DNA of 64,000 nucleotides from an uncultured virus (IMG/VR IMGVR_UViG_3300020530_000425) (taxonomy: Duplodnaviria; Heunggongvirae; Uroviricota; Caudoviricetes): IMG/VR virus record IMGVR_UViG_3300020530_000425, one strand, 5' to 3'. Below are positions 5,564-33,400 of the stretch, one piece after another. The notes under the pieces were generated by a model, which did no database searches, was not told the DNA's origin, and saw only the letters and a program-made list of their open reading frames with translations. The translations under genes and the position numbers were made by a program. Position 1 is the first letter of the stretch. Each line of letters starts with the position of its first letter.

Positions 5564-6679
5564 TTATATGTTTAAATTTAAATGATGAAAATTGTGATTT
5601 ACAAATTTGTTATTATTTATTTTATTTATTTCTTTTAAAAAATCATCAAACAATTCATGTTCTTCATTAAATACTTGCAACTCTTTTAAAGTTTCATCTG
5701 TATATGTTCCCCAATCTACTATTTGTCTATATTGTATCCATAAATCAAATGTTGAATCTTTAAATATATTAGTCATTATCTCATAAAACAAATGCATTTC
5801 TTTATAGTTGTGTTTACTAACTACCATAGAGCATATAAATTGGTTTATTGTTTTTTGTTTTGATAAAAATTTTAAATTGGTTATTAATCTATCCCAATTA
5901 CTATTTAATCTAGTCTTATTTTCGTATGTATCTTTTGTTGCAGCGTCAATACTAACTTCTATTGTTTTAATGTAAGGACTTGCTTTCATTTGATTCCAAA
6001 GCTTTTCATCCAATAAATTACCATTGGTAATTATTTGCAATTGTTCTAACTTTGGATATTTTGTTATATCAAAGTTTATCAAATAATCTCTATAAATCTT
6101 TGAGTAAAACGGGTCACCACTTCCTGTTACCATTATACATTTTAATCCACTTGCAAAGTTATCTTCAATGGATTTTAATAAATGCAACTTTGCTTTATGT
6201 TGAGGAGATTGTAAATCATCATTTGGAATTAAATTAACTCTACACGATGGACATTTTAAATTACAACTTCTATCAAACCCAAATAAAATTTCTTGAGGAG
6301 GTAATTTAAAATTAATTACATCTTCTTCGGTATGTATATTATACACTTCTTTAAACTCTTCTATTTCTCTAAAAAAACAGGGCTTTCTACCTGTATTTAT
6401 TAACTCATTTAATCTTGGGCATACCGTGTGATTGCAATATGTGTAAGTCCCATCTAAAACTGATTTACGAATGTTTTTAGCGGGAGTAGATGTCCAATTT
6501 CTCATTACATCATCGGTTTCATTTATTGGAAACCAACTTTCATTTCCGTTCTCATCTACTCTGATACTTTGCGGTGCCCAAGAAGGACAGCATACGAATT
6601 GAGATATCGATTGTACATCACTATACATAAACGGCATCTCACAAACGTATTTTTTAAGTATGTCCTCTTTTTTATCCAT
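5564..6679 (-). CDS. Radical SAM protein with N-terminal twitch/SPASM-like Cys cluster
   Basis: CNLKCPSC, GSGDPF, ITNG, VSIDA; N-terminal CEMPF..CCPSW..YCNHTVCP. Confidence 0.9.
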   Translation of the reverse strand: MDKKEDILKKYVCEMPFMYSDVQSISQFVCCPSWAPQSIRVDENGNESWFPINETDDVMRNWTSTPAKNIRKSVLDGTYTYCNHTVCPRLNELINTGRKPCFFREIEEFKEVYNIHTEEDVINFKLPPQEILFGFDRSCNLKCPSCRVNLIPNDDLQSPQHKAKLHLLKSIEDNFASGLKCIMVTGSGDPFYSKIYRDYLINFDITKYPKLEQLQIITNGNLLDEKLWNQMKASPYIKTIEVSIDAATKDTYENKTRLNSNWDRLITNLKFLSKQKTINQFICSMVVSKHNYKEMHLFYEIMTNIFKDSTFDLWIQYRQIVDWGTYTDETLKELQVFNEEHELFDDFLKEINKINNNKFVNHNFHHLNLNI

Positions 6680-10438: not shown

Positions 10439-11842
10439 TTATTTTGTTGTGTAATCTATTTTTATTTTTTCAAATATCTCATCAAAACACTCATAGTTTT
10501 CAAATGAGTATATATGCTTTTGGTTATATAATAATATATCAATTATTGAATAATACCAATTATGTAATTCCTCAATTGGTATATTTTTTAATTTAAGTAA
10601 TTCTTTTTCTAAAAGTAATATTCTTTTTTTAGGGTCTATTTCTGAATCGTAACTCTCATCTATAAATGGTTCAAATGTTTTAAAGCCCAGCCTCTTTAAT
10701 TCTGCTAATGTTAGATAATCACCAAACACCAAAAATGGTTGTAGATTTGAAATTGGTTTAAATATTTTTTCTGAAAGGAAAACATTTGGTCCAAAAAATG
10801 TTTCAGTTACTAAATGAAAATATGAATCCGCATACCATTCTTTTTTATTATTTCTAACTCCAAATGCCTGTTTCTTATCAGATGGAACTTCTTTTGTATC
10901 ATCTTCATACGGTAATAATGATTCTAATTGTGTTGTATATTTTTCAATATTTTCAAAGGTGTCATCATATACATTTGTTACGATACTTTTTAATTTATCT
11001 TTTTCTAATTGTTGTATAAATGTAAATAACCCATCTTTTAACAAATCATATTTTAATGCAAAATACCCCATCATAGTTCTTTGTGGTTTTTGCATTGTTC
11101 TATTTGGGGATAAAAATTTATGTTTTCTAATTTTAGTAGAATCCAAATCTTTTTCTTCAAATAATTCACACAAATACCCCAAATTACCAATCATTGGAAA
11201 TGAATTTATTTCATCTGCGTATCCTCTTATAAATAAGTGTCCATTGTATATTTTTATTTTACTATCAGAATACATTTGATAATATTCAGAAAATTTACTT
11301 CCTCCTAAAATTATAATATTGGAACTATCAACTCCTAACTCATTTAATTGAAGTTCAAATTTTCGTATATTATTTGAATCATATAACGGGTCGTGTATCA
11401 TATTTACCAATATCTTCACTTTACCCAATTTAATTAAATCAAATAATTCAGGTTTTATAATATCTTTTAAAAACCAACTATATTTTGTATCATTTAGTAA
11501 AAAATTGTTTTCACAATGTAGTGCAGAAAGTGTATCTTTTATTTCCAATGGATACACATATACAAAATCATCATCTTTAATTTGATTAAATGATACTATA
11601 TTTTTAGGAAAATTTCTAGAAAAATAATTAAACAATTCCGAATGGTCAAATTTAATACTCTTTTCTTCCGATTGATATTGGAGCACCTGATACCAATCTA
11701 GTTTTAAATTATTTTTTAAAATATGTTGAATAAATTCCATAATAACAGGATGCATCCCATTACCAAATGGTTTTAATTGTCCTTGTTCAATATACCAATC
11801 GGTATATATTATTTTAAAATTTGAACCATGTATTGCATTCAT
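10439..11842 (-). CDS. GT10-like putative glycosyltransferase, paralog 2
   Basis: LVTETFF..FLSEKIFKPI..QPFLVFG...GFKTFEPFIDESYD. Start moved to MNAIHG (11842), 1 nt after the upstream stop. Confidence 0.55.
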   Translation of the reverse strand: MNAIHGSNFKIIYTDWYIEQGQLKPFGNGMHPVIMEFIQHILKNNLKLDWYQVLQYQSEEKSIKFDHSELFNYFSRNFPKNIVSFNQIKDDDFVYVYPLEIKDTLSALHCENNFLLNDTKYSWFLKDIIKPELFDLIKLGKVKILVNMIHDPLYDSNNIRKFELQLNELGVDSSNIIILGGSKFSEYYQMYSDSKIKIYNGHLFIRGYADEINSFPMIGNLGYLCELFEEKDLDSTKIRKHKFLSPNRTMQKPQRTMMGYFALKYDLLKDGLFTFIQQLEKDKLKSIVTNVYDDTFENIEKYTTQLESLLPYEDDTKEVPSDKKQAFGVRNNKKEWYADSYFHLVTETFFGPNVFLSEKIFKPISNLQPFLVFGDYLTLAELKRLGFKTFEPFIDESYDSEIDPKKRILLLEKELLKLKNIPIEELHNWYYSIIDILLYNQKHIYSFENYECFDEIFEKIKIDYTTK

Positions 11843-11843
11843 A

Positions 11844-12803
11844 TTAATATCTGTATATTTTTTTAACACTATTCCCTACATAATTGTTATCGTGAAAGAA
11901 ACTTTCAAATAACAATTCATTTTTTATATAATCTTTAGTACACATTAAATTAAAAATATTATCTGAACTTTCTGGTGATATATTGTAATTTATATCGTTA
12001 TTTATCATATCATTTACAAAATTTTTAATTCCATCTACTATTTTTATTTTATCACTAAAATATTTCTGATTGTGTGTATCTGCTTCGTTTACAAACTCAT
12101 CATTAACAATATCGATATATGTTCCAACTTTATCTGTAAATACTGATTCAAAAAATATAATATTGTTTTTAAAATTACATTTTTCAAAATCATAAAAACC
12201 TTTTGTATTTTTCAAATCTATATTTCCTTTATAAGTCATATATCTACCTTTTAAATCTAAATCAAATGTTTTTTGTAAATAGTATTGAGTAGTTCCCTGA
12301 TACCCACTATCAATCATATATACATTTTTACATTCTCCAATCGTATTATTAATATATTTTTTATATGAATCTCTTAATAGTTTGGCTTTGCCTAATATAT
12401 CCGGAATACATAAATTTAAATTTGGTAATCTATTTAAAGTATCAATTTGAATATTAGTTTCTGTAACATAATTTAATCCAAATCTATCTTTAATCAATTC
12501 AGATAAAGTGCCTTGATATCTATGTAAATTAAATGATTCGTAGATATCATCTTCAGATACAAATGAAGATAGTGATGATAATTTTCTTGATGTTTTAAAA
12601 TAAATTGAATTTGGTAAATTATATTTTATTTTAAAATCTTGATATAATTGATTAAGAAAATATCCTTCTCGTGAGTTAAATAAAATCAAATCACCATCTT
12701 TTATTTCATCTTTCAACCAATTAAAATAGTTAAATAATAATGGTCCAAAAAAGATGTAACCAAGTTCTTCTAATGATTCTGGATTTTTAACAATATGACC
12801 CAT
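11844..12803 (-). CDS. Protein resembling the C-terminal part of HAD-superfamily proteins found in polysaccharide loci
   Basis: LGYIFFGPLL, FNSREGYFL, TSRK, IDSGYQGTTQ motifs; no DxD HAD motif of its own. Confidence 0.6.
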   Translation of the reverse strand: MGHIVKNPESLEELGYIFFGPLLFNYFNWLKDEIKDGDLILFNSREGYFLNQLYQDFKIKYNLPNSIYFKTSRKLSSLSSFVSEDDIYESFNLHRYQGTLSELIKDRFGLNYVTETNIQIDTLNRLPNLNLCIPDILGKAKLLRDSYKKYINNTIGECKNVYMIDSGYQGTTQYYLQKTFDLDLKGRYMTYKGNIDLKNTKGFYDFEKCNFKNNIIFFESVFTDKVGTYIDIVNDEFVNEADTHNQKYFSDKIKIVDGIKNFVNDMINNDINYNISPESSDNIFNLMCTKDYIKNELLFESFFHDNNYVGNSVKKIYRY

Positions 12804-13234
12804 TATAAGTAAACTTTAAATGAAGGTATGCCAAGTGAAATCCACAAATCAATTATTTCTTGTTTATCATCAAACGCACAATACACATCATCTTTGATAA
12901 AATCATTGTACATTTTTCGTTTTAACTCTACATCTTTAATATAATGATTTTCTTCACCTCGCATGAACAATCCATCATATTTAACTCCATGCATTTCTAA
13001 CCAATCCTGTGTAGAATTAAGTATCATTCGTGGTCTACTAGTTAGTATATAAATTCCATAATCATTATATAGGTGATTTATAATATCAATCATAGGTAAG
13101 TTAGGCCTATCTGATATTACATTTTTATAATCATATAAAACATCCCAATCGATACTATTATCAGATTTGGTTGCAAGTGCATACCTTTTTTTATTTATTG
13201 AAAGAGTATTATCTATATCGACTATAACAATCAT
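12803..13234 (-). CDS. HAD-family phosphatase (T4 PseT phosphatase-domain-like)
   Basis: VDIDNTL, LTSRP, LFMR..D..LK, FDD motifs. Confidence 0.85.
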   Translation of the reverse strand: MIVIVDIDNTLSINKKRYALATKSDNSIDWDVLYDYKNVISDRPNLPMIDIINHLYNDYGIYILTSRPRMILNSTQDWLEMHGVKYDGLFMRGEENHYIKDVELKRKMYNDFIKDDVYCAFDDKQEIIDLWISLGIPSFKVYL

Positions 13235-14433
13235 TTTCGTAAACCTTGTTCTTCATAACTTACAGGTACTTTTATTCCTGTATTACACCCATTACAATTA
13301 TCGCAAAATGTGATATATCCTAAATTTGTATATCCCAAATCGAATTTTATAAAATCTTCTTTTGATATTGTTTTTAAATCGACATAATCATTTTCATTTA
13401 ATGGAAATAATTTTGTAAGTACTGCTGATGTATTCAAATGACAATAATAAAACTTACCATCGTTTAAACCTCTAAATGGTGCCGTACAACTATCAAAATG
13501 TTTAATTAATTCATCCGTTGGTAAATTGTTTTTAATTCTTAAATCACCAAAATCATACCATTCAATTTCAGTTCTAACATAGTGATTTATATCCCATTCT
13601 TTTAAAGTATTAATAACTCTTAATACTTTCTTTTGAATATTTTCTAATTTATCAGTATAATCACTAACACTTAAAATAACATCATTATTTTTTAATAACT
13701 CTAATGTGCTTTCTTTAGGTGAAATTGTACCATTTGTTGTAATTATAAATTTATCTATTTTATCTATATGTTTAGATAAAACATGCTTTATAATATCCTC
13801 AATTTGTGGATGTAAAAATGGTTCACCACCAACTAAATGAAACACACTAATATAATCAGTAATATTAAAAAATAAATCTATATCAGATTTAATTATTTCA
13901 ATATCTCTGTGATTTGGTGAAACATAATGTGGCATAAACATATTACAATATGAGCATGCTAATGTACATTTTTCGGTAACTAAAACATCCGTTTGAAATA
14001 TATGAACCATATTCTTATACTGTAATGGCCATATAGATGCAATGTGTTTATATGTAGTATAATCTACTTTGTTTTCTTCCAAATAATTTTTATAGTAATT
14101 TTTATAAACATCAGATGTTATAATTACTTTTTCATTTTTATTTAAATCAAAATCATCAATGTGAATTAATGGAATACCGCTTCTATCTATTTTAATATTT
14201 TTTGATTTTCTAAAAAACTTACTTATTTCATCAATATTATTTAATATAAATTTATCTTTAATATTATGGTCTACAATATATTTTATTTTTAATCTATCAT
14301 TCCCCAATAAAAAATCCATAGTTCTAATGAATTGGACACACTCTTTACTTGCACCAAATAGTACATATTCCTTTTCAGTATCCCATTCAGATATGAAGTT
14401 ATTAAAATCGTGTAAATTAGGATTGTATAACAT
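13231..14433 (-). CDS. Radical SAM protein with N-terminal Rossmann-like domain
   Basis: CTLACSYC, GGEPFLHP, TTNGT; C-terminal C..YYCH..CDNC; N-terminal YVLFGAS..YIVD. Confidence 0.9.
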   Translation of the reverse strand: MLYNPNLHDFNNFISEWDTEKEYVLFGASKECVQFIRTMDFLLGNDRLKIKYIVDHNIKDKFILNNIDEISKFFRKSKNIKIDRSGIPLIHIDDFDLNKNEKVIITSDVYKNYYKNYLEENKVDYTTYKHIASIWPLQYKNMVHIFQTDVLVTEKCTLACSYCNMFMPHYVSPNHRDIEIIKSDIDLFFNITDYISVFHLVGGEPFLHPQIEDIIKHVLSKHIDKIDKFIITTNGTISPKESTLELLKNNDVILSVSDYTDKLENIQKKVLRVINTLKEWDINHYVRTEIEWYDFGDLRIKNNLPTDELIKHFDSCTAPFRGLNDGKFYYCHLNTSAVLTKLFPLNENDYVDLKTISKEDFIKFDLGYTNLGYITFCDNCNGCNTGIKVPVSYEEQGLRK

Positions 14434-14434
14434 A

Positions 14435-15070
14435 TTAAAATACTACCCATTTACCACTTCCGTAGTGTGGATATTTTGATTTATATTCATAATGAATTAC
14501 ATCGGATGGAATATCTTTCTTTGTATTCCAAGTTGCTTCCGTTGGAGTGTAGGTTGAAACCGCATTATCTTCTACTATAAAATATACGGGTAAATCAAAG
14601 TTTCTAGCATATTTATGAACTTCATAAAATATACCACTTTCAAAACTCATATCTCCAACAAATACCCAAACCTTTTCATCACCACCTTTTTCTTTGATTC
14701 CCATCGCTACACCTAACGCAATCGATAAAGTACCTCCAACAATAGCAGATGCATAAAATTTCTCATCTATTTTACATAAAGTAATTGATTTACCATTCAA
14801 TATTTCATTTTTAATCCATTCAGGTGAAATACCATGTAATAGTGCGTGATAGTGAGACCTCCAAGTTGAAAATACCCAATCATTAGCAGATATTCTTTTA
14901 AATATTTCTATGAGTTGTTCTTCATTACCATTTGATAGATGTATAGGTCCTCTGATTTTACCGTTTTCCCACTCTTCCACTATATCATTTTCAAAGTCAA
15001 TTAAATCCTGTGGTGTGAGTGTAGTATCTACCTCATTTAAAGTTTTATATTGTTCTAAATTTTGTATCAT
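14435..15070 (-). CDS. ThDP-binding E1-alpha-like subunit (short)
   Basis: GPIHLSNG, STWRSHYHAL, SAIVGG, VGDMSFESG...VEDN (ThDP-binding motif). Confidence 0.88.
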   Translation of the reverse strand: MIQNLEQYKTLNEVDTTLTPQDLIDFENDIVEEWENGKIRGPIHLSNGNEEQLIEIFKRISANDWVFSTWRSHYHALLHGISPEWIKNEILNGKSITLCKIDEKFYASAIVGGTLSIALGVAMGIKEKGGDEKVWVFVGDMSFESGIFYEVHKYARNFDLPVYFIVEDNAVSTYTPTEATWNTKKDIPSDVIHYEYKSKYPHYGSGKWVVF

Positions 15071-15606
15071 TATCTATCTCTTTTTTGTAATATTGGATTA
15101 TTTGTTGGCCATTCCATCTGATATTCGGGGTCGTTCCATTTAACAACACCTTGTTCGTCAGCATCGACATAACCGTCTTTATAAAATAAATTATAGTGAA
15201 ACATACAATCGGTTAATGCATAATGACCATTTGCAAAACCTGGTGGAACTAATACTTGATTTCGCAATCTTTCTGAAATAATATACGATTCCCAATCTCC
15301 ATAAGTAGGTGAATCTTTTCTCATATCTAATACAACTAAATAGATATCACCAACTGCTGCTTGAACTAATTTCCAAGTCTTATTATCCCAATGCAATCCT
15401 CTCAATACTCCTTTATAAGAACGAGAAAATCTTCCATGTACTTCACATTTACTATCGATATAATCGACTATTGGGTGTTCAATTGAATGAAATGTTGTCC
15501 ATATTTCACCTCTATATTCTCTAAATACAGATGGTTGGAATGTTGGAACTTCATAACCAAATTTTTTCGATGGAGTAATTTGAAACTCATCCCATTTACT
15601 ACTCAT
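15070..15606 (-). CDS. rmlC: dTDP-4-dehydrorhamnose 3,5-epimerase family protein
   Basis: SYKGVLRGLH, KLV..AVGDIYLVVLDMRKDSPTYG, VPPGFANG, WNDP. Confidence 0.9.
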   Translation of the reverse strand: MSSKWDEFQITPSKKFGYEVPTFQPSVFREYRGEIWTTFHSIEHPIVDYIDSKCEVHGRFSRSYKGVLRGLHWDNKTWKLVQAAVGDIYLVVLDMRKDSPTYGDWESYIISERLRNQVLVPPGFANGHYALTDCMFHYNLFYKDGYVDADEQGVVKWNDPEYQMEWPTNNPILQKRDR

Positions 15607-16577: not shown

Positions 16578-17342
16578 TTAGAAATAAATGTTCTTTTCTA
16601 TATAAAATTGAGGATAATTTCCACTAAAACTAACATCCCACACTTTATATCTATTGTAATGATTAAAATCACATAAAAATGCAAAATTATTTCTATATGG
16701 ATAATCGTAATTTAATTTTCGTAAATCATTATAAACTATATGTGAATAATCCGTTGCGTAGTTATCGATAAAATCTTGAATTTCTTCAATTTTTAATTTT
16801 TTGTTTAACACAAATGCCATTTCAAACTCAAAATCTCCAATACATTGATGTTCTTCTGGACCAATCATACTCCCACACCCAAACCAATAGAAAGAATGTT
16901 CGTATTTCATCTTTTCACCATCTTCAAATGCAATAGTTCCTACTAATTTTCCATTTTTATAACATTTGATAGTTCTTTCCAAAAAATGGTCACAAATCAT
17001 AGCGTACTCATTGAATTCGTTAATTTCTTCTGGTAATAATCCAGTAAAAATTTGTTTTGCGTACATTTCAGTTCTGCCATCTTCAGTTTTTTTTGAAAAC
17101 CAATATGTAAATCCAATCGAAATAACTCCCAAATTATCTTTATAAGCAGAAATACCTGAATGCATTCCATTTCTGGCAATTGCAAATGATTCTTTATTTG
17201 TAATTACGGTATCAGGAAATACTTTAAACTTTACGAATAAAGAAAAATCCTCATCCATATCTTTATCAATTCTTCTTGACACCGCATATCTACTTTCCGG
17301 CAAAACGAAAAATATACTATCTTTGTTTACTCTTAAACTCAT
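16578..17342 (-). CDS. Stand-alone LamG/concanavalin-A-like domain protein
   Basis: FSLFVKFK, CYKNGKLV, LCDFN pattern parallels the inserts in the adjacent GT7 proteins. Start moved to MSLRV (ATGA overlap at 17339-17342). Confidence 0.55.
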   Translation of the reverse strand: MSLRVNKDSIFFVLPESRYAVSRRIDKDMDEDFSLFVKFKVFPDTVITNKESFAIARNGMHSGISAYKDNLGVISIGFTYWFSKKTEDGRTEMYAKQIFTGLLPEEINEFNEYAMICDHFLERTIKCYKNGKLVGTIAFEDGEKMKYEHSFYWFGCGSMIGPEEHQCIGDFEFEMAFVLNKKLKIEEIQDFIDNYATDYSHIVYNDLRKLNYDYPYRNNFAFLCDFNHYNRYKVWDVSFSGNYPQFYIEKNIYF

Positions 17343-18754
17343 ATTTTTATTGTTGAACAAAAGTGATAAAATTCTTCTAATTCAGGGAATGTTTTACAAA
17401 AATCAGTTCCTCTACGTTTATCATGATTTGAGAAATATTGATAAAAACTATATCTATTTTTCATTTGTTGTGTTGCATCCTGCGGAGAAACCATCCAATC
17501 ATAAATTCTTTTTACTTTTTGAACCTCAACATCAGAATATCCAATATGTTTTGGGTCAAATGATGGTGCCGCATAATATGTAATTAGTTTGGCTTGGTCC
17601 GTAATATGTTTAGCGTAATCAAAAGGAAGTACCTGAACCGTCTGATGTAGCGGGTATCGTAAATATGATGAATCTAAAAACACTGCAGAATTCCAATATC
17701 TATCGGTAGATGCGTATACATCTTTTAATGTGTAAATATTATGAATTAATTGTTCATAATTAAAAACACTTAACGCATTGTATGTAGACATGAATGTTAT
17801 AATAGTTCTTGGACATTGTGTAAGAATTTTATTTACGTTATCCCAAAATTTATTGAATTCTAATCCAGTACGAATGTATTCTGCTTGCTCACCCCACGTA
17901 TCCGTAGATGTAAATATTACAATTTCTTTTACCCTACCTTCATCCTCTATTTTTTTTATTTTTTCAATTAGTTTATCTATTAATTTATCAGGAACTCCTA
18001 AATTTGAATTAATTGCTAATTTTAATTCAGTATTTGGGTTTGGATGATTTAGAATGTAATCTAATACACCCCAAGTATCCTTTGACATTAACGGTTCACC
18101 ACCAGTAATTCTAAAAGTGTGTAAATCTTTGTATAAATCAGGCCACCATTTCCAAAATGCTTCAACATAAGGATTATATTCTTTGTTTGGGATGGGTAAT
18201 TTATCTTCATTTTTCATCCAATCAACTGAATTGAAATTGTCTAATGTTGGATACGCTCCAAATTCTTCAATTTCTTCCATCCATTTTGAACTGTATGCAG
18301 GACCACAATAGGAACATTTAAAATTACACGCATTTGAGAATGCAACTTCTACATACTTTGGATTAAAATCTTCTCTCCAATCAGATTGGATGATATCATT
18401 TATAAATGGATAAGACCAACTTTCACCTGATTTAAAAACTCTATCCGAAAAACGGTCTGAATTATCTTCCACTTTCCAACAATAATCACATTCGGTTGGT
18501 CTTGCTCCTTGTAACATTTCTTTTCTACGAAGTTTTTTGTATCTCGTATTGTGAAGTGCAGATGGATTTCGTGCAATTTCCGTTTCTGAAATTTTATGTG
18601 TTTGAGGGTGGTGACATGAGTGGTTATGCCCACTTTGTAATTGCAATGTTACCTGCGTCCATTTAGCGGCACACATACCTGGACCAACTGCATCTAACTC
18701 ATCTTTAACTCTTAAATATATCGGATTTTCCGAATAACTTTTATCTTCTGCCAT
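17339..18754 (-). CDS. Radical SAM protein with N-terminal twitch-like domain
   Basis: CNFKCSYC, TGGEPL, INSNL; N-terminal CAAKW..SCHHP..CDYCW. Confidence 0.9.
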   Translation of the reverse strand: MAEDKSYSENPIYLRVKDELDAVGPGMCAAKWTQVTLQLQSGHNHSCHHPQTHKISETEIARNPSALHNTRYKKLRRKEMLQGARPTECDYCWKVEDNSDRFSDRVFKSGESWSYPFINDIIQSDWREDFNPKYVEVAFSNACNFKCSYCGPAYSSKWMEEIEEFGAYPTLDNFNSVDWMKNEDKLPIPNKEYNPYVEAFWKWWPDLYKDLHTFRITGGEPLMSKDTWGVLDYILNHPNPNTELKLAINSNLGVPDKLIDKLIEKIKKIEDEGRVKEIVIFTSTDTWGEQAEYIRTGLEFNKFWDNVNKILTQCPRTIITFMSTYNALSVFNYEQLIHNIYTLKDVYASTDRYWNSAVFLDSSYLRYPLHQTVQVLPFDYAKHITDQAKLITYYAAPSFDPKHIGYSDVEVQKVKRIYDWMVSPQDATQQMKNRYSFYQYFSNHDKRRGTDFCKTFPELEEFYHFCSTIKI

Positions 18755-18758
18755 ATTT

Positions 18759-20225
18759 TTATTTTAAACAATGAACATTTATTAATTTATGTTTATCGGA
18801 AATGATTTTAGTGCTAATATGTTTATACTTCATATTATTTATACCATCTTTTTTATAATCAATCTTACCCTGTTGCATTTCTAATACATATCTTCTTTCA
18901 TTTCTAGCCGTTGTTTCTCCTTTAGCCCATTTATCAACACCTCCAACTTTAATTAACCCCTCGGTTTCATGTGGTAGACAGAAAAATTTACCATCTCTTC
19001 TATGCGGTAATATTACATGAGGTATTTGTATTTCTCTTTCCTCAATACTAACATTATACATTACACCATCATTTACTTCAGCCTGGTCTATTACAAATTT
19101 ACCATCAGTTATTTCATCAAAATTATAATGTAATATTAAACCATCCGTTGAATATTCTTTATGTAATTTTGAAACATCTTCACTTGATAATGCTCTATTC
19201 CATAATTTAATATCGGCAATTTCACCTTTAAAAAAGGCGTGTGGTTCAAATGGTTCTACGGTAGATGTGTGTCCTATGTAAAATGGCTCTGTACCATATC
19301 TTTTTAAATTATAGTTGTATTCAACTGGAGATTGTGTGCCAGTTCCGTTTCTAGCATCACTTTCATTTCCATTCAAATAAAAATGCATTTTCTTTTCTAA
19401 ATCATCAACTACCATTGTTACCCAAGTCCACTCACCTTCATAACGCTTGAACCATTGATATATGTGTTCTCTGTGTGAGTTCCACATCATACCAGTATAT
19501 GCTCTACTGTTATTAAAGGATAATCCCCAATCATAACCTGGTTTTCTGAATATAGGATATTCAACAAATTTTCTTTCAGTATCACCAATTAACCAAATAG
19601 GAACTTTTTCTATTTGTTGTTCTGCTTTTACTAATACTGAAATCGTATGTGAATTAGATATTGCCATTCTAGTTTGTTCTGTGGATGGTATTTTAATATA
19701 AGATTGCTTACCATCAAATAGTGCCACATTTTTTACTTTAGCAAAATCAATAGTTTGTTTATCCACATATCCTTCCATAACACATCTCCAAAAAAGGTCA
19801 TCATCTTCCATACCCCAATCCCAATAGTCATTTGAATAACCATTAGTTGCTAAAACTTGTTCTTTTGTAAAAACAACCGCACCACCAAAGTATTCCTGAT
19901 ATTTTAATTGATAATCAGATTGTGAAATACGAACTGCAATGTGTTGTGGATTTTCTTCTGGATATGAATAATCACAACTATCATCTTCAGGCACCATATC
20001 AATATCATGCCAAACAATATAATCACATCCATCATCAATTGCGTGCTTTGCAGCAATATTTTTCATCAATCCTCTGTTGAATAAATATTCATCACATTGA
20101 TGTGCAATATAAATGGTATGGTCAATTCCTTTCTTTGTTAAGAAATTAGTAACCCAAGGAACAAATTTATTCATGTGTTCCTCTCTGTTTCTATATGGTA
20201 CGCAAACACCTAACTTATGTCCCAT
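18759..20225 (-). CDS. GT7 beta-1,4-galactosyltransferase-like protein with inserted LamG-like domain, copy 1
   Basis: VPYRNR, FNRG, HDID, YFGG, NGYSNDYWDWGMEDDD; insert with FYLNG, FKGEIADIKLWNRALS; GT7 tail LPH...DGINNMKY. Confidence 0.88.
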   Translation of the reverse strand: MGHKLGVCVPYRNREEHMNKFVPWVTNFLTKKGIDHTIYIAHQCDEYLFNRGLMKNIAAKHAIDDGCDYIVWHDIDMVPEDDSCDYSYPEENPQHIAVRISQSDYQLKYQEYFGGAVVFTKEQVLATNGYSNDYWDWGMEDDDLFWRCVMEGYVDKQTIDFAKVKNVALFDGKQSYIKIPSTEQTRMAISNSHTISVLVKAEQQIEKVPIWLIGDTERKFVEYPIFRKPGYDWGLSFNNSRAYTGMMWNSHREHIYQWFKRYEGEWTWVTMVVDDLEKKMHFYLNGNESDARNGTGTQSPVEYNYNLKRYGTEPFYIGHTSTVEPFEPHAFFKGEIADIKLWNRALSSEDVSKLHKEYSTDGLILHYNFDEITDGKFVIDQAEVNDGVMYNVSIEEREIQIPHVILPHRRDGKFFCLPHETEGLIKVGGVDKWAKGETTARNERRYVLEMQQGKIDYKKDGINNMKYKHISTKIISDKHKLINVHCLK

Positions 20226-20226
20226 T

Positions 20227-21657
20227 CTACAATAATACCGATAGATGATGATAGTTATTCATTGTTACATCATTTAATACTTGATATAAACAACTATTTA
20301 AACCATCTTTATCTGTGTTATATAATTTAGTTTTAACTTGATTTAAAAATCTTAATTGGTTTATACGAGTTTCTCTGTGAACCCAGTTTTTCTCATTCCA
20401 ACTATTTGTTTTATGAGATAATAATTTAAATAAAGATTTTCTTCTATATGGAACTGCCATTTCTCTACCCAATGATTCATGTGATTTTATGAAATGGCAA
20501 TTGTGTATTTCTCCGTTATTATTATTAAATGATAAATCTAATAAAGTATCTTCTTTATAGAATTTAAAATCATAATATAATTGTAAATGTTGTGCGGATT
20601 TATAACCTCTAAAATTTTCTAATAAAGAATTTTCTAAAACATTGTCAGATAATATTTCAATTTCTTTATCTTTTAATTTACAATCATATATTGCAAATTC
20701 GGAAATCATTCCATAAAAAAAGTTTTGATTAGAATCTCTTTCTGGTGAACCAACTCCTAAATAAAAATATTCTTCATTTGAATAATCTTTAGGTGCATGT
20801 TTTACTTTTTCAGTATTAACTAACGTACCATCTTTATAAAAAGAAATTTGGTTTTTTTCATAATCAAAAGTTAAACAGATTTGAGTAAAATGATTAGTTA
20901 ATATTTCTGAATTAATAGAAGTGCAGTTATCAGTATTATCCCAAAAATCTATTTTATATCTTCTAAATGAATTATAACTTATATTTGTATCATAACCAGG
21001 TATAGAAAATACAGTATACTCATCATAATCATTATTTGGGTTAGATGTTATTTCATCTGGCTTAAATGTTATTAATATTGTAGTATCCTTTTCAAAATCT
21101 AATAATTCTTTTTTTGGTATTTTTATATAAGAATCGTTTCCACTAAATGATAATCCGTATAATTTTTTGGTTTCATTTTTACCAATTATTTTAGAATCTA
21201 ATGGAATTTTTTTCTGATTTACTCTAAATAAAAGGTCGTCATCTTCAAATCCCCATCCCCAATATAAATTGGAATACCCGTTTATTCGTTCAAATGTATC
21301 GGAACTAAACATAGTTACACCACCAAAATAGTCATCAAATGATAAGTTTTTAGATTTATCATATTCTAATTCAAAATTAGTTGCAAGATGCATAGGTAAT
21401 TCAGAATAAGAATAATCAACCTCAATTGGTAACATATCCACATCATGAAATACAACATAACCACATCCTAATTCTTTTGCTTTAATATATCCAATATTTA
21501 ATAACTTTCCTCTATTAAACGGTTTATCATCAGTTTGTTCAACTACAATAATTTCGTGTTTAATTTTTTTGGATTTTAAATATGAAGATGTTATTTCACC
21601 GAATCGGGTGAGATGTGATTCTCTATCTCTATATGGTACAATTATTCCTAATTTCAT
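20227..21657 (-). CDS. GT7 galactosyltransferase-like protein with inserted LamG-like domain, copy 2
   Basis: VPYRDR, FNRGKLLNIG, HDVDMLP, YFGGV, NGYSNLYWGWGFEDDD; insert FYKDG, FYGMISEFAIY; tail LSH...DGLNSCLY. Confidence 0.88.
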   Translation of the reverse strand: MKLGIIVPYRDRESHLTRFGEITSSYLKSKKIKHEIIVVEQTDDKPFNRGKLLNIGYIKAKELGCGYVVFHDVDMLPIEVDYSYSELPMHLATNFELEYDKSKNLSFDDYFGGVTMFSSDTFERINGYSNLYWGWGFEDDDLLFRVNQKKIPLDSKIIGKNETKKLYGLSFSGNDSYIKIPKKELLDFEKDTTILITFKPDEITSNPNNDYDEYTVFSIPGYDTNISYNSFRRYKIDFWDNTDNCTSINSEILTNHFTQICLTFDYEKNQISFYKDGTLVNTEKVKHAPKDYSNEEYFYLGVGSPERDSNQNFFYGMISEFAIYDCKLKDKEIEILSDNVLENSLLENFRGYKSAQHLQLYYDFKFYKEDTLLDLSFNNNNGEIHNCHFIKSHESLGREMAVPYRRKSLFKLLSHKTNSWNEKNWVHRETRINQLRFLNQVKTKLYNTDKDGLNSCLYQVLNDVTMNNYHHLSVLL

Positions 21658-21662
21658 TTAGA

Positions 21663-22004
21663 TTATACTTTTTCGATATCTTTTTTAGGTCTTGCTCTAC
21701 GAGGTGGTGGTAATTCTGCCCCTTCTTCGGTTTGGGCAGGTTCTGTTGGAACATTTCCAGCAAAAGGTTTTTCTGAATTTGATGATGCACCATTTTCTTT
21801 TGCAATATTATAGAATTCATACAGATAATACGCAACTCTATCACTCCACTCTGATTTGTTAATTTCTTCAAACCAAATAGTAAGTGCATCTAATGAGTTT
21901 GCAATTTTTTCTAATGCTTTTACTTTTCTAGTTTCTAACACAACTGATTCTAAATTTTCGTTTGTAGAAGGTGTTGTATCAGACTGTAACTTAATTTTTG
22001 CCAT
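21663..22004 (-). CDS. Hypothetical protein
   Basis: 113-aa ORF tightly packed between GT7 genes; helical core, low-complexity tail. Confidence 0.7.
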   Translation of the reverse strand: MAKIKLQSDTTPSTNENLESVVLETRKVKALEKIANSLDALTIWFEEINKSEWSDRVAYYLYEFYNIAKENGASSNSEKPFAGNVPTEPAQTEEGAELPPPRRARPKKDIEKV

Positions 22005-22011
22005 TTTATTT

Positions 22012-23469
22012 TTATATTTTAATTTGATGCTTATAAACTCCTGTTTTAATTTCTTCGGTTGATATTAAATCGTATGATAATGTATTCAAACCAAATTTAT
22101 CAGTATCTAATATATCAGTTGCAATTTCATAAAAGAAAATATTTTCATTTTCTTCAAATATTTCATTTTTTTCTGTCCAATTATAGTTCTCTAATTTAGT
22201 AAATTTTTTTGAATTTTCCAAGATTTGAAACCGTCCATTTGATTGTTCTGGCATATCAAATTCATAAGATAAATTCAATTCTTCGGAATATGTTTCCTGA
22301 TGTATTCCAGTTGATACTATTCTTGGATTTGAAAATGTTTTAGAATCATCTACATAAAAATCTCCAAATTTTTTATCAAATGGTACATTTATAACCGCTT
22401 CAAAATTTGTAGTTATTGTATTGTTTGTTGTTTTGTATCCGTCTGTATATAATTTTATTATTTCAGAATCTGCTAACGCGTAATCAAATAATAATAAGTT
22501 GGATATTTTGCCACTAAATGAATTTTTAAATGCTAAACTACCAATCCATAAATCTTTTCCTTTAAAATCCATTAAATGTTTTGGTAATTTATCTAATGTT
22601 TGCACAATTTTACCATCAACATATAAACTGGCTTTTTTCTTATCCATATCAACCTTTAATGATAGGTTTATCCATTGATTGGCATGAGATTTATGTGGAT
22701 ACCACATTTGATGTAAATTATTATCATCACTCCACAATTGAACTACAATTGCTTCATTTTTCATAATAAAAATTCCCATATCATATCCTTGTTTTCCAAT
22801 AATACACCCATTATTTGATTGGTTGTTATTGATAAAAACATTCATTGATATTGTAAATGAATCTTCAAAAATATAATCGGTTGTTTTATTTGCTCTTACA
22901 AATACACAATTATTTTCATTTGATTCAAACGGATATATTGTTTTTTTAATGTATTTATTTACCTCTTTTACATCTGTTAAAACATGCGGTTTATATATAT
23001 TTTTAGTAAAAAATCTTTTTGCAGATAATAATTTGTGTTTTTTTAATCTATACAAAAAATCTATCCAATGAAAAGAACCTCCCCAATAATCATTACTAAA
23101 TCCGTTTGCTTCGAAGAAATTTTCTTTTGTAATTTTAAAAGCACCACCTACCCAATGTGGATATGGTTTTAAATTTGGACAAAGGTGAGTTGGATAGTAT
23201 TCAAAATCGTAATTGCACGATTCCTGTTTAGGTAAAATATCTATATCATGGAATACATAATAATCTGAACGATTTTGTGTTATGGATGCACCAATATTGC
23301 ATAACTTTCCATAATTGAAATAAACATCTGCATCAATTTGTTCTATGAAATGAATTTCGTAATCCGTTTTATCTTTTAAAAAGTATTCCATGTGACCCAC
23401 AAAGGTATATAGGTCTTGTAAACGATTGGAGTACGGTACTATAATTGATAACTTTTTATTGTTCATCAT
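22012..23469 (-). CDS. Degenerate GT7-like protein with inserted LamG-like domain, copy 3
   Basis: IIVPY, FNYGKLCNIG, HDIDILP, WVGG, NGFSNDYWG retained, but WGxEDDD is replaced by GSFHWID; insert LYVDG, FSGKISNL; tail FGLNTLSY. Confidence 0.8.
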   Translation of the reverse strand: MMNNKKLSIIVPYSNRLQDLYTFVGHMEYFLKDKTDYEIHFIEQIDADVYFNYGKLCNIGASITQNRSDYYVFHDIDILPKQESCNYDFEYYPTHLCPNLKPYPHWVGGAFKITKENFFEANGFSNDYWGGSFHWIDFLYRLKKHKLLSAKRFFTKNIYKPHVLTDVKEVNKYIKKTIYPFESNENNCVFVRANKTTDYIFEDSFTISMNVFINNNQSNNGCIIGKQGYDMGIFIMKNEAIVVQLWSDDNNLHQMWYPHKSHANQWINLSLKVDMDKKKASLYVDGKIVQTLDKLPKHLMDFKGKDLWIGSLAFKNSFSGKISNLLLFDYALADSEIIKLYTDGYKTTNNTITTNFEAVINVPFDKKFGDFYVDDSKTFSNPRIVSTGIHQETYSEELNLSYEFDMPEQSNGRFQILENSKKFTKLENYNWTEKNEIFEENENIFFYEIATDILDTDKFGLNTLSYDLISTEEIKTGVYKHQIKI

Positions 23470-23483
23470 TTTAATAACCTATT

Positions 23484-24335
23484 TTATATAGATATAATTT
23501 TTTTAAATAATTTATCCCAATTTTTATAATTTTCATAGTTCGCAGTTGGGCAATATTCAAACATATATGTTACATCATCATCAATTGGCATTTGAAAGTT
23601 TTCTCTCCGAAGTGCTTGGTACATTTTTAAATATTCATCTGAAAATGCATAATCTTTTCTAATATCTGCTACTGATTTAATTCTATCTATACAAGTAGAA
23701 TCCCATTTAAAATGATGAACCTGAACATTATACTCATCAACGGGTGCAATTAATGGGTGATTCCATCCCATCCATTTCCAAGTTGTTTGTCCATCAATTT
23801 TAGCATAATGTTGTCCTGATGTTAATTCAATATTTCCTTTTACTATACAAATTTTGTTTGGACATGCTCCACTCATTGGGTATCTGAAAAATCCAGCATA
23901 CGGAAATTGCTCAAATATATTATCAGTTTGATTTATTTTACTAAATTCACCATCTTCCCCAATTCTATCTATAAATCCACCTCTTACTAATTCCCACCCG
24001 TTATTATTACAATCCGCTATTATTTCTGATAATGGTTTTGAATATAAATGAAACTCATCATCATCCGATATTACCCACCAATCATTAGGATATTTTGATT
24101 TTTCTTCGTTGTATAATTTGGTAACTAATTCCCAATTATATTTTTCTCCAATTGCTCTTCTTACTATTTTCGCATTTGAAAATTGTGAAACAATATCGGA
24201 TACATCATTGTATGTACTAACACCTTCCCATTCATATACAACCACCCACATCTCATCTACTAAATCGGCATAATGCTTTAGCATGTGATATAAAGTGTTT
24301 GTTCTACTACCTGTTACTGTAACTAATCTAATCAT
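23484..24335 (-). CDS. GT-A fold glycosyltransferase (GT2-like)
   Basis: WWVISDDDEF (DxD), K.....GQH, HHFKW motifs. Confidence 0.75.
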   Translation of the reverse strand: MIRLVTVTGSRTNTLYHMLKHYADLVDEMWVVVYEWEGVSTYNDVSDIVSQFSNAKIVRRAIGEKYNWELVTKLYNEEKSKYPNDWWVISDDDEFHLYSKPLSEIIADCNNNGWELVRGGFIDRIGEDGEFSKINQTDNIFEQFPYAGFFRYPMSGACPNKICIVKGNIELTSGQHYAKIDGQTTWKWMGWNHPLIAPVDEYNVQVHHFKWDSTCIDRIKSVADIRKDYAFSDEYLKMYQALRRENFQMPIDDDVTYMFEYCPTANYENYKNWDKLFKKIISI

Positions 24336-25090
24336 TTTCTTTTAACTAATGTTAATCCAGTTGATGCTGGTTTATTTTTTTGAATACCAAAATTAAAAAG
24401 GTCAAATACTTCCCAATTTGGATTATCCTTTAATTCTTTTGCAAATACAATTGGTCCGTGCCAATCATCAAAATCACCTCTATCTTTTACTTCGTTTGTA
24501 ACGATGTAACTATCTGCATAGTTAGGGTCGGTATCGTGGATTGAAATGATTCCATTTGGAGAAAGTAATTGTGAGTATAACTCAAAATCTTCTTTAACAT
24601 TTTCATAACTATGCCCTGCATCAATATGCAAATAATCTATCTGAATATCATTGAGAACAAAATAATTATGAAATGCTTCTTCTGTTGTTTTATTAATAAT
24701 TCGTGGATGAAATGTTCTTCTAAAAAAAGATTCTTCTCTGAACCAATTTACATTACCCCCAATACCATTCATCGCATCAACTACATAAGTAACTCCAATA
24801 TCTCCCCAATTTAAATCAGGATTTCCTTCAAATATTTTCTGATTATATAAATCATATCTAGCCTGTGTCATTAATCTTGGAATAAATCCACCACCACTTC
24901 CCAAACATACACAAGTTTTTGCTCTCATATACTGGATGATGGAATACACAATTAATCCATCACCTAAATGTAAATCAGTTGCACCATGAGACCATCTATA
25001 AGGAACTGGAGAATCTTCTTGTTCCTGATACTCATTGAATTCGATATTATTTGTTATAGTATTTTTTATGTATTGTAAATCTTGTAGCAT
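24332..25090 (-). CDS. Class I SAM-dependent methyltransferase
   Basis: CLGSGGG, IDYLHIDAGHSYENVKEDF, GIISIHD. Confidence 0.88.
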   Translation of the reverse strand: MLQDLQYIKNTITNNIEFNEYQEQEDSPVPYRWSHGATDLHLGDGLIVYSIIQYMRAKTCVCLGSGGGFIPRLMTQARYDLYNQKIFEGNPDLNWGDIGVTYVVDAMNGIGGNVNWFREESFFRRTFHPRIINKTTEEAFHNYFVLNDIQIDYLHIDAGHSYENVKEDFELYSQLLSPNGIISIHDTDPNYADSYIVTNEVKDRGDFDDWHGPIVFAKELKDNPNWEVFDLFNFGIQKNKPASTGLTLVKRK

Positions 25091-30429: not shown

Positions 30430-33400
30430 CTACTTATTTAATAACTTTTTAATTGATGTTATTTCATTTTTTAATTCAGTAATTTCACCATTTTGTTCTT
30501 TTATTCCTTCAATCAATAAGGCAATTATCTTTTCGTAATCAACTCCTAAATATCCATCACCCTTTTCCTTTACAACTTCTGGTAATACTTCTTGAATTTC
30601 TTGTGCTAAAACTCCTACTTCTTGAACATTTTTTGGTTTGTTAGAAATACCGTTCCAATTAAATGTATATCCTCCAATTTTTTTAATTTTATCCATTGGA
30701 TTTGAAATAGGAATAATATTTTCTTTTAATCTCTTATCGGAACTAGCTAATGCGTAAACATCACCAGTTGCTCTTATATCACCATTTATAGTTAGAACAC
30801 CACTAGATACTGAAAATTCACCAACTGATAAATTTGTTATTGAACCATTGGTTGCACTTAAAGTAGAAAATGTACTTAATCCAGAAAAGTTTGATGAACC
30901 CTTTACGGTTAAAAAATTAGTGGCAGATAAACTTGTATCAACTTTAAATTGATTTGAACCATATAGTGATTGTAATCCTGCTTGGCAAATTTCAACACTT
31001 CTAGGTGCACTACCAACTACGGCATTTACCCCACTAAAATTTGGAGTTTTTAAAGTAATACTTTCACCACCAACTAAATAATTTACTCCAATTTGATGTT
31101 TTATTCTAACATTATATGTTCCACCTGAAGGTATTACTATAGAACCACCTCCAGTAGATGTTATACCTCGTTCATAATTAGGAGCATTATAAAATACATA
31201 ACCCGATGCAATAAGTGCTTCGCCCACTCCCACAACTTCTAAACTTACCCAATGGTAAGTTTGAACATAAGTTGCAGTAGATATTTGCATCCAATATGAA
31301 GTACCTGCCGAATTGGAAATCATTGATGCTATCTCCGCATCTGTTATTGAAACCTCTGTTCCAGCTGCAACAACACCCGTTGATACATTGTTTGAATAGA
31401 ATGTAGTACTTGCTTCAGACTGTAAGTTTTGTCCAAAAATTGCACCATTTCTTACTACTGAATCTGTACCACTAAAATCAGATAAAGCGGATGTAGAACT
31501 TCCTATTCTAAATGAAGTATCATCCGTCATAATTACTGCATTTCTAGAACCATCTTTTATAAAGAATCCTAAATCATTTGAGTTAATTTCTATTGTACCA
31601 GTACTCGTTTTACTTATTTTATCGGTAGAAATTGACCAACCTCCAATTGTAGCACCTAACGCGGATAATTCACTTACTGTTATTTTATCTGCCGTTACAG
31701 AACCAGCTGCAATCTTACCCGCAGTTATGGCATTTGTAGCAATTTTATCTGCAACTATTGCGTTCGCTGCTATTTTATCGGCAATTATTGCATTCGCTGC
31801 TATTTTACCAGAAGTAACTGCATCTGTTGCAATATTTCCCGCTTGTACTGCATTAGCAGCTAATTCTGTATTTGTTACGGTACTTAATGTTGCCAAACCA
31901 CCCAATCCTGTAACTTGTCCAGTTGATACGGTGTTTTGAGTTGCCAAAGTCCCCAATCCTGTAACTTGTCCAGTTGATACGGTGTTTTGAGTTGCAAGGC
32001 CTCCTAATCCTGTAACTTGTCCAGTTGATACGGTGTTTTGAGTTGCAAGGCCTCCCAATCCACTCACCGTTCCAACTGGAACACTACTACCAACAGCTAT
32101 GTTACCAACTATATTTAGAGTAGTTCCATCCCATGTTAATGAATTTGATGCAGATTTTAAAGATAACCTTCCAGTTGTTCCATTACTACCTATAAATGCA
32201 CCAATTTGGTCATATCCTTTCGTTGCTTGTCCAATTGAAATAAACGGAGATGTTGTGCCACCTGCAATTGTAATATTAGCATTACCTGATGAATTTGTTC
32301 CAACATTTATTGTGTTTTGTACAAATGATTCTTTAGATATAAACATTTCAGCAGCTACAAAAAATGAATCTGTTCCGAGTGATTGCCAAAATGTGGTTTG
32401 AGTATCCGGTTGTTTATTTAAATTTGCAGATGCATTTGTTTTTGTAGCATAATAAGTTCCACTATACAACACCACATCTTTACGTGTTGGGTCTTGACTA
32501 ACACTATTGTAAGTTGTAGTAGAATTCCAAGGACCTCTAAACACTACACCTGGCCCGTCTCCCCCAGTCGCTCCGGGTGCACCATCTGCTCCGTTCGTTC
32601 CATTGGTTCCGTTCGTTCCATTGGTTCCATTAGCCCCTGCTGCTCCAGTAGGAACTTTTGTTGCTCTAACAATTATCGTTTGAGTTTGTCCAGTCGTACC
32701 TTCACTATCAGTATGTGTTACTGTTAATGTTACCGATGCTTCTGCTGCATTCATTACCGCAGATGTCATTGTTAATGTTGCACTACTAACAGTTGGTGGA
32801 GTTGAGAATCCTGAAGTAGATGCAATGGTCATAGAAGTAAATCTACTAGTTGTTCCTTCTAATGCACTTATAGTTACATTTGATAAAGTTCCAGTTTGCG
32901 TTCCTGCTGCATTAGCCAATACAGATTGCGCTTGAGGTGAAGCAGAAATTAATACCAATGGAACTGCTTTTTTAACTTTTGATAAACTTAATGTATCGGT
33001 TACAGTTCTACTTGTTCCTTCAGAATCAGTTACAATTGCACTTATATTTACAGTTGTGGAATTTATTCCATCCGCTAAAGTTTGATTACTCAAAGTTACT
33101 ACTCCAGTTGTATTATTTACTGTTAAACTCCCACCAGTATCTACTCTAGTTGCAGTTAATGTTGCTGGTAAAGTGATAGTAGAACCATTGTAAGTTTCTT
33201 TTACAACTATCGTTGAATCTAAAAATGAATCAATTTGTGCACCTGTTGATTTAGCAGTTACACTTTGGTCTTTTGGTGTTGATGATATAGCTAAAACAGG
33301 TGCTGCTTTTTTATTTTTAGTATAAGTTACGTTTTTTATAATAGAAGTTGTATCACCTGCTCCATCCTTATAACTAATTGTTATATCCAATGAACCCGAA

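Follow-up and report, generated by a model that had tools for sequence, protein, structure and literature searches.

The stretch of DNA analysed here, referred to throughout as the window, comprises 64,000 nucleotides and is the reverse strand of positions 16787–80786 of a 145-kb linear virus record (IMG/VR IMGVR_UViG_3300020530_000425; Caudoviricetes) that is estimated to be 77% complete. Three neighbouring minus-strand genes within it, here called p1, p2, and p3 (Table 1), encode proteins in which a laminin G-like (LamG) domain is nested inside the catalytic domain of a family 7 glycosyltransferase (GT7), a family of textbook animal Golgi enzymes. An initial annotation of this DNA had described the three genes as tandem galactosyltransferases of an architecture not previously reported. 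The architecture is real, widespread in uncultured phages, and unstudied, and it is a new variation on a known enzyme type.

Domain make-up, insertion point, and catalytic residues

All three proteins passed the curated (gathering) Pfam cut-offs for Glyco_transf_7N (66.9, 67.6, and 51.2 bits for p1, p2, and p3; cut-off 27; E 1e-13 to 1e-18), Glyco_transf_7C (65.8, 63.1, and, barely above the cut-off of 23, 23.3 bits), and Laminin_G_3 (52.4, 59.5, and 45.6 bits; cut-off 27.6; E 1e-11 to 6e-16), with p3 reaching E-values of 1e-13, only 5e-5, and 1e-11 for the three families, respectively. The motifs VPY, FNxG, HDxD, GG, and NGxSNxYW were found in p1, p2, and p3 alike, and together with the Pfam scans they bear out the GT7 motifs and LamG-like insert that had been noted in each protein. 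Relative to p1, p2 is 29% and p3 26% identical, in an alignment that is full-length and collinear. In each of the three, the Glyco_transf_7C profile was covered only to position 43–60 of 78, with the LamG match beginning directly after; the insert of p1 amounts to ~250 aa (residues 154–406), a correction of the ~230 aa first estimated. A PHROG search left p1 without a match and returned only weak partial matches for p2 and p3, those of p2 being to a tail terminator (E 7.5e-7, over the LamG stretch) and to a ‘galactosyl transferase’ (E 1.4e-4).

In an AlphaFold2 model of p1 (predicted local distance difference test [pLDDT], 93.8; predicted template modelling score, 0.88), the GT-A fold superposes on β4GalT1, including the C-terminal lid and end strands, with the structural alignment reaching β4GalT1 residue 400, and the insert forms a two-sheet β-sandwich of the LamG/concanavalin A (ConA)-like type. 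The model thus upholds three earlier expectations, namely that the insert would be a ConA-like sandwich, that the C-terminal tail would complete the GT7 fold, and that the insert would enter next to the flexible lid (p1 residues 421–440; pLDDT 81–88, the lowest within the C half). At the sequence level, p1 residues 3–153 matched bovine/human β4GalT1 at E 5.6e-32, aligned to chain positions 64–214, and B4GALT7 at E 7.9e-31, such that the resemblance of the N-terminal part to B4GALT7 stands but B4GALT1 is at least as close. Foldseek recovered the N half at E 1e-13 over 152–155 columns, and the β4GalT1 match rose to E 3.5e-54 with a profile of 64 family members, of which positions 421–465 were collinear with β4GalT1 chain 235–278 (the DKKNEPNPQRF...DGLNSLTYQVL end), a weak match of 6 bits.

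The complete LamG/ConA-like β-sandwich occupies a surface turn that joins the helix downstream of the E-D-D-D motif to the strand bearing the metal-ligand His of the lid, with the p1 insert placed 12 residues before that histidine. The spacing P407-x4-G412-x3-C416-x2-H419 in p1 equals that of the β4GalT1 segment SRPNAVIGK(T)R(H)I, in which we take the counterparts to be P335, G340, M344, and H347, and the LamG domain therefore replaces a four-residue turn. When separate hidden Markov models (HMMs) were made from the N half, insert, and C half of the phage enzymes, the N-half and C-half models matched closely following segments in 39 insert-less proteins, with the two GT7 halves 0–6 residues apart in the best-matched of these and the detected C match beginning 20–50 residues later elsewhere; in one such relative (L094, 218 aa) the Glyco_transf_7C profile was covered from 1 to 77 of 78. 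A circular permutation of the LamG domain, with the ‘L.YDF...D.S..N.G’ strands last, was considered and dropped, as residues 5–204 of pentraxin chains can be followed collinearly along model residues 164..400.

Catalytic residues were compared across 182 GT7-LamG open reading frames (ORFs; ≥420 aa) from the window and 80 related IMG/VR loci, assigned to a p1 class (n = 83), a p2 class (n = 78), and a p3 class (n = 21). The p1 class kept the DxD motif, W137, E140, D141, D143, R409, H419, and G461 in 81–83 of 83 sequences. In p1 numbering, the p2 class kept the DxD motif, W137, E140, D141, and H419 in 77–78 of 78, D143 in 70, and, D143 excepted, the full residue set including R409 and G461 in 75–78; in p2 numbering, D72, D74, E138, D139, and the His were kept in 77–78. 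Both aspartates of the DxD motif (D74 and D76), which reads HDID in p1, HDVD in p2, and HDID in p3, were present in every p1-class (83/83) and p2-class (78/78) sequence. With WGMEDDD...CLPH in p1 and WGFEDDD...LLSH in p2, both proteins possess the catalytic Asp, the loop Trp, and the lid His, and from the alignment we take the Trp, Glu, Asp, and His to be equivalent to W314, E317, D318, and H347 of β4GalT1. The Tyr preceding FGG (Y112) is likewise conserved (82/83 in the p1 class and 77/78 in the p2 class), and in β4GalT1 a Tyr at that position disfavours N-acetylhexosamine donors. From these residues we infer that p1 and p2 are metal-dependent inverting transferases, and the conserved Tyr hints at a uridine diphosphate (UDP)-hexose as the donor.

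The p3 of the window reads GGSFHWIDF and ILENS and lacks the catalytic Asp, acceptor-loop Trp, and lid His, such that the EDDD helix and tail His once ascribed to all three proteins hold for p1 and p2 but not for p3, with FHWID and ILENS in their place. The p3 class, found in 22 of the 80 loci, is split: 11 of its 21 members keep the lid His, 10 of those also the Asp, and the other 10, including p3 of the window, carry GG.F(H/E)(W/Y).D and ILENS and have lost the loop Trp, catalytic Asp, R409, and lid His, with HD(I/V)(D/N) still in place. This apparently dead form has been kept in one subclade. Because of the four losses, p3 is not expected to transfer sugars in the manner of the GT7 family; it is a GT7 homologue but probably not an active GT7 enzyme.

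Distribution of the architecture and its genomic setting

A word-indexed search showed the architecture to be abundant in metagenomes, with 1659 clusters at E ≤ 1e-3; among the 120 clusters listed, 116 possessed all three Pfam domains, four were shorter (339–436 aa) and lacked Glyco_transf_7N or both GT7 domains, and all 120 were unnamed or called ‘hypothetical protein’. An exhaustive search returned 5648 representatives at E 1e-3, of which 137 reached E 1e-30, with ~52 of the best 150 matches being full-length in a single stretch (430–520 aa). In IMG/VR, at least 657 stretches were matched and at least 648 loci confirmed, and neither p1 nor p2 had a tblastn match among 50,697 deposited phage records, a collection from which records very close to the window may be missing. 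For bacterial and archaeal genomes, at least 197 of at least 606 GT7-like stretches were confirmed, which qualifies the earlier statement that GT7 is mainly eukaryotic, and 77 loci were kept, consisting of 67 insert-less bacterial genes and 10 genes with the LamG architecture, all ten in metagenome-assembled genomes (MAGs). Five of the ten bear the phage cassette described below (L084–L087 and L092), including a 23-kb contig labelled Pelagibacterales (L084) that is collinear with the window, and, outside that cassette, a Spirochaetales-labelled MAG contig (L091) carries two LamG-type GT7 genes together with an FkbM-radical-SAM (S-adenosylmethionine) fusion, a carbamoyltransferase, and a polysaccharide deacetylase. 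No paper on a GT7 with a nested LamG domain or on a phage GT7 was found in full-text literature searches, although family lists in supplements could include them; the novelty initially claimed thus holds for the literature but not for sequence databases, in which the architecture is already common.

An N-half tree placed the p1 and p2 clades, which hold 223 of the 252 insert-bearing sequences, apart from 113 of 114 insert-less sequences, with a support of only 0.67. The p1 clade (0.98) and the p2 clade (0.87) were each recovered, and p3 fell outside with weak support (0.36). The only insert-less sequence on the p1 and p2 side of the tree was P0159, a 450-aa protein of two insert-less GT7 units in tandem. 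A single insertion event is suggested by the common insertion point and by the homology of the inserts and not by the N-half tree, in which the insert-bearing enzymes did not resolve as one clade.

Homologues of p2 and p1 occurred in all 80 related loci, and most flanking genes of the island occurred in only 1–49. The two belong to a six-gene cassette consisting of a methyltransferase, a GT-A protein, a small helical protein, p2, p1, and a twitch-domain radical-SAM enzyme (Table 1). A p2-class gene lies directly upstream of a p1-class gene in 79 of the 80 loci, separated by ≤10 nt in 68, a gap count that derives from first-start ORF calls and may overstate overlaps. Three GT7-LamG copies are present in 22 loci, two in 56, and one in two, and p1 is 46–92% identical across loci whose flanks are variable. 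The three copies in the window are indeed minus-strand neighbours, but the ‘tandem’ of the initial annotation is interrupted between p2 and p3 by the conserved 113-aa ORF of the cassette.

Table 1. Positions of the GT7-LamG genes, the domains of p1, and other genes of the island in the window; counts refer to the 80 related loci.
Feature	Position	Strand	Remarks
p1, predicted GT7-LamG glycosyltransferase	18759–20225	minus	488 aa; catalytic residues all present
p1, N-terminal GT7 half	19767..20225	minus	residues 1–153: nucleotide-sugar site, DxD, acceptor-loop Trp, EDDD helix
p1, nested LamG/ConA-like domain	19008..19766	minus	residues 154–406
p1, C-terminal GT7 half	18762..19007	minus	residues 407–488: strand with Cys416 and His419, lid, DGxN...Y end
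p2, predicted GT7-LamG glycosyltransferase	20227–21657	minus	476 aa; catalytic residues present; Pfam
p3, GT7-LamG paralogue	22012–23469	minus	485 aa; DxD kept; catalytic Asp, lid His, loop Trp, and Arg409 equivalent lost
Small conserved protein, 113 aa	21663–22004	minus	homologue in 69/80 loci
GT-A-fold protein, probable glycosyltransferase, 283 aa	23484–24335	minus	homologue in 75/80 loci
Class I SAM methyltransferase (Methyltransf_24)	24332–25090	minus	Pfam E 8e-12; homologue in 69/80 loci
Twitch-domain radical SAM protein	17339–18754	minus	NCBIfam NF033640, E 5e-104; homologue in 77/80 loci; directly downstream of p1
Free-standing LamG-like protein, 260 aa	16578–17360	minus	insert-related; no Pfam match of its own
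Split transketolase/E1-like, RmlC-like epimerase, and further radical-SAM/SPASM-like enzymes	5020–5562, 14435–15070, 15070–15606, 5564–6679, 13231–14433	minus	
Two paralogous ~478-aa proteins	3426–4865 and 10439–11869	minus	36% identity over the last 177 residues, E 2e-18

Amongst the other cassette members, the 283-aa protein had no Pfam, PHROG, or NCBIfam match, but its predicted fold is GT-A, with GalS1 (GT92) and the peptide S-glycosyltransferase SunS as the nearest structures and a conserved DDDE motif. The sole deposited-phage relative of the radical-SAM protein is from the Ralstonia jumbo phage RsoM2USA (38% identity over 96% of the query), where it is annotated as hypothetical. The small protein is 60–113 aa long in relatives and consists of a ~45-residue conserved core and variable tails, with a PKDPTING-like end in 11 of 67 sequences and an RPxKDxER-like end in 20. 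A homologue lies ≤60 nt upstream of p2 in 70 of the 80 loci, including two tandem copies in L030 and L036. No family match was found for it in Pfam, PHROG, NCBIfam, or the PDB, where the best rows were designed coiled coils and a BAG domain (E 0.1–2), and in the Atlas it matched unnamed viral clusters only (0.81–0.83). Position 37, which immediately precedes the site of a 7-residue insertion in two relatives, is S, T, or C in 63 of the 67 sequences. A role as a glycocin-like substrate peptide (helix-loop-helix with a loop Ser) was considered and is retained as a side remark at most, the loop residue being A or N in four of the 67 sequences and Cys pairs being absent.

The phage is a distant T4-like myovirus, whose baseplate protein shares 40–43% identity with its counterparts in Microcystis phage Mel-JY01 and a Flavobacterium phage, and outside the window the record encodes T4-type gp20, gp23, gp19, and gp32 as well as PhoH, Hsp20, and Cpn10. 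It further encodes ribosomal protein S21 (L162:17300-17488), a 735-aa protein with Hint/intein-type domains (L161:7443-9650), and a fragment match to a family A DNA polymerase (L164:18621-19886), and, in the window, a 1052-aa ORF (36678–39836, minus strand) matches SbcD-like (residues 5–337) and SbcC-like (324–1051) nuclease subunits in an apparent fusion. The window has a GC content of 31%, nearly all of its genes are on one strand, and no tRNA gene in it hinted at the host.

The cassette lies in a glycan island (~1–30 kb of the window) between tail-fibre/baseplate genes and the terminase, portal, protease, and gp23-type capsid genes. The island also encodes a cytidylyltransferase, three NAD-dependent epimerase/dehydratases, an RmlC-like epimerase, an HAD phosphatase, a carbamoyltransferase, split E1/transketolase-like proteins, and two more radical-SAM proteins. 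The transketolase/E1-like, RmlC-like, and radical-SAM/SPASM-like genes suggest the synthesis of an unusual branched or deoxy sugar. The two ~478-aa paralogues, with homologues in 46 (3426–4865) and 49 (10439–11869) of the 80 loci, had no family or PDB match; their ‘...LSEKI.KPI....PF...G’ stretch resembles, by eye, what we take to be a fucosyltransferase (GT10) motif and may provide a lead.

Proposed role of the insert and candidate acceptors

Taken together, these observations may be read as a glycosylation system directed at the phage itself, a reading to which a probability of about 0.4 is assigned and which is put forward tentatively. Under it, p1 and p2, for which no signal peptide was evident, would be soluble, cytoplasmic, metal-dependent inverting GT7 (GT-A) transferases that act as a conserved pair, and the six-gene cassette would build and tailor a short glycan from UDP-hexose donors. 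The LamG domain at the hinge of the lid would recognise the acceptor in cis, as α-lactalbumin does in trans for β4GalT1. The acceptor would be encoded by the phage and would probably be a virion protein such as a Ser/Thr-rich fibre, to which the glycan is added in the cytoplasm ahead of virion assembly, and p3 would be degenerate, probably still binding a nucleotide or glycan without GT7-type transfer. A related version, in which the lectin sets GT7 acceptor specificity as a covalent ‘specifier’, the whole cassette writes a conserved tailored glycan on virion fibres, and p3 is a glycan- or nucleotide-binding scaffold, is considered unlikely.

The initial annotation had suggested that the insert might choose acceptors or confer processivity, and both are candidate roles. 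The nested LamG domain would most likely be a built-in acceptor-recognition module, as judged from two features of its sequence. In the p1 class, 28 columns of the insert are ≥95% conserved, including a set of aromatic and polar residues (W266, W268, Y256, N238, N239, R227, E222, and K260) such as occur in sugar-binding sites, and the insert profile matches the CBM40 lectin modules of sialidases (E 3e-10). An insert-related domain also occurs on its own in the island, the free-standing 260-aa protein aligning to columns 190–380 of the GT7-LamG alignment (hhalign probability 92%, E 6e-7) and having a homologue at the same relative position in 21 of the 80 loci. A phage protein is the most likely candidate for the acceptor, a view suggested by the absence of membrane machinery, by the position of the island amongst structural genes, by the conservation of the core despite variable flanks, by the Ser/Thr-rich fibres nearby (25–32% S+T compared to 15% genome-wide, including a 1753-aa fibre adjoining the island), and by the failure to find partners for DNA hypermodification. 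The 1753-aa fibre spans 30430–35691 of the window, and other Ser/Thr-rich fibres lie at 101.8–116.2 kb of the record.

Several points weigh against this phage-directed reading. The p2-class insert has only eight columns conserved at ≥95%, mostly Gly, Pro, and Asp, a pattern as compatible with a structural function as with a binding one. Fibres are Ser/Thr-rich in many phages in which they carry no glycan. The missing membrane proteins are weak evidence, because lipid-carrier enzymes and flippases of the host could serve in their stead, and, with a record only 77% complete, genes that seem to be missing may be encoded elsewhere. A LamG-type GT7 outside the cassette (L088:5941-7431, on a cellular-looking 66-kb MAG contig) adjoins a GT2, an ABC transporter, an SNF2 helicase, and a leucine-rich repeat kinase, and its position beside the GT2 and ABC transporter hints at polysaccharide export there. 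Lastly, similar islands in pelagimyophages have been read as a means of host O-antigen modification in the available text of PMC7029224.

The first of these points also favours an alternative in which the LamG domain is a structural or assembly element, serving p1-p2(-p3) oligomerisation or docking on the small protein or a virion intermediate, with acceptor choice residing in the GT7 core. The faster evolution of the insert relative to the catalytic halves (identity of 46% vs 73% in the p1 class and 32% vs 58% in the p2 class) is consistent with such a role, as are the near-constant pairing of p2 with p1 (79/80), the small protein adjoining p2 (70/80), and the retention of a catalytically dead p3 in one subclade. 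The aromatic and polar set of the p1-class insert argues for sugar binding instead, and a purely structural LamG domain appears quite unlikely.

A second alternative is that, during infection, the cassette alters a glycan of the host envelope (O-antigen, capsule, or S-layer), for example to block superinfection, with the LamG domain binding a growing lipid-linked polysaccharide. Such a function would be in keeping with the interpretation given to the glycosyltransferase-rich ‘host recognition clusters’ of pelagimyophages (PMC7029224, available text), with the LamG-bearing relative in L088, with the likeness of the insert profile to glycan-binding CBM40 modules, and with an island rich in nucleotide-sugar enzymes (the three epimerase/dehydratases, RmlC-like protein, cytidylyltransferase, and carbamoyltransferase). 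However, a crude hydropathy scan of window positions 1–30 kb found no polytopic membrane protein, be it an initiating phosphoglycosyltransferase, flippase, ABC transporter, or polymerase, and the core cassette is conserved (p1 at 46–92% identity across 80 loci) while its flanks vary. Further, cassette-bearing contigs were binned with MAGs labelled Pelagibacterales, Flavobacteriales, and others, which fits host-specific acceptors poorly, though binning is weak evidence of the host. On balance, an envelope glycan as the target is regarded as somewhat unlikely.

A third alternative, that the enzymes glycosylate hypermodified bases of the phage DNA and so evade restriction, is highly improbable. 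It has a precedent in the phage glycosyltransferases that build di- and tri-saccharides on 5-hydroxymethylcytosine (5hmC; bioRxiv 10.1101/2023.12.21.572611), and the cassette methyltransferase weakly matches a PHROG family that bears the label ‘DNA methyltransferase’ (E 1e-6, 58 residues). The 5hmC pathways described in the available portion of that source use JGT/TarP-like GT-A or T4 BGT-like GT-B enzymes, with GT7 and LamG unmentioned, and cluster with thymidylate-synthase-like genes or with 5mYOX and C5-methyltransferase genes (bioRxiv 10.1101/2023.12.21.572611), whereas no Thymidylat_synt or DNA_methylase (C5) match was found in the 145-kb, 77% complete record, and the island lies amongst structural genes rather than replication genes.

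Returning to the phage-directed reading, few parts of this hypervariable glycan island are as conserved as its compact, predicted soluble GT7 with a lid-nested domain, and the uncultured aquatic phages that carry it form a widespread lineage. If the LamG domain does steer acceptor choice, these enzymes would provide a natural example of retargeting a glycosyltransferase by domain insertion. They would also offer a handle on what these phages glycosylate, a question relevant to how phages and hosts recognise each other and to how ‘LPS (lipopolysaccharide) genes’ in marine phage genomes should be understood.

Comparison with known systems

Virion glycosylation in mycobacteriophages was reportedly described by Freeman and colleagues in 2023. 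The pelagimyophage ‘host recognition cluster’ of PMC7029224 contains glycosyltransferases, mainly GT8, along with radical-SAM cassettes, and islands described there resemble the present one in being a variable block of glycosyltransferase, sugar-nucleotide, and radical-SAM genes amongst tail-fibre and structural genes. The GT7-LamG cassette itself is not described in the available text of that source, in which neither ‘galactosyl’ nor ‘laminin’ occurs and concanavalin A domains are mentioned for structural proteins alone (PMC7029224). The available portions of PMC12619734 and PMC12801897 likewise make no mention of GT7, galactosyltransferase, or LamG.

Insert-less GT7-like proteins of bacteria and viruses (~210–350 aa; for example L094–L160, from Chlamydiae, Steroidobacteraceae, and Verrucomicrobia genomes and MAGs) share with the phage enzymes the same compact core from the VPYR strand onwards. 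They differ in lacking the LamG domain, their halves being contiguous and Glyco_transf_7C being matched end to end. Of the animal enzymes, B4GALT1 (CAZy GT7; PDB 1tvy, 1nf5, 1o0r, and 2ae7), with the sequence likeness given above, has in common with the phage enzymes the DxD motif, the acceptor-loop Trp, the E-D-D-D helix, the Tyr before FGG, the lid His, and the DGLN...Y end. In contrast to B4GALT1, the phage enzymes are phage-encoded and, as predicted, cytoplasmic, without the membrane anchor, the stem, or the first ~50 residues of the catalytic domain; they have an invariant His before the DxD motif, a Cys (p1) or variable residue (p2) at the position of Met344, and a 250-residue LamG domain in place of the four-residue turn. 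B4GALT7 (xylosylprotein galactosyltransferase; PDB 4irq, 4irp, and 3lw6) differs from them as B4GALT1 does, and the sequence comparisons give no reason to prefer it as the nearest relative.

The closest functional parallel to the proposed role of the insert is lactose synthase, in which α-lactalbumin, positioned beside the closed β4GalT1 lid, redefines the acceptor. Lactose synthase entries (PDB 1nf5, 1yro, and 4l41) were among the fold matches of the p1 model. The parallel is one of functional analogy only, as the phage module is covalently nested within the enzyme and has a LamG fold, compared to the lysozyme-like fold of the separate α-lactalbumin.

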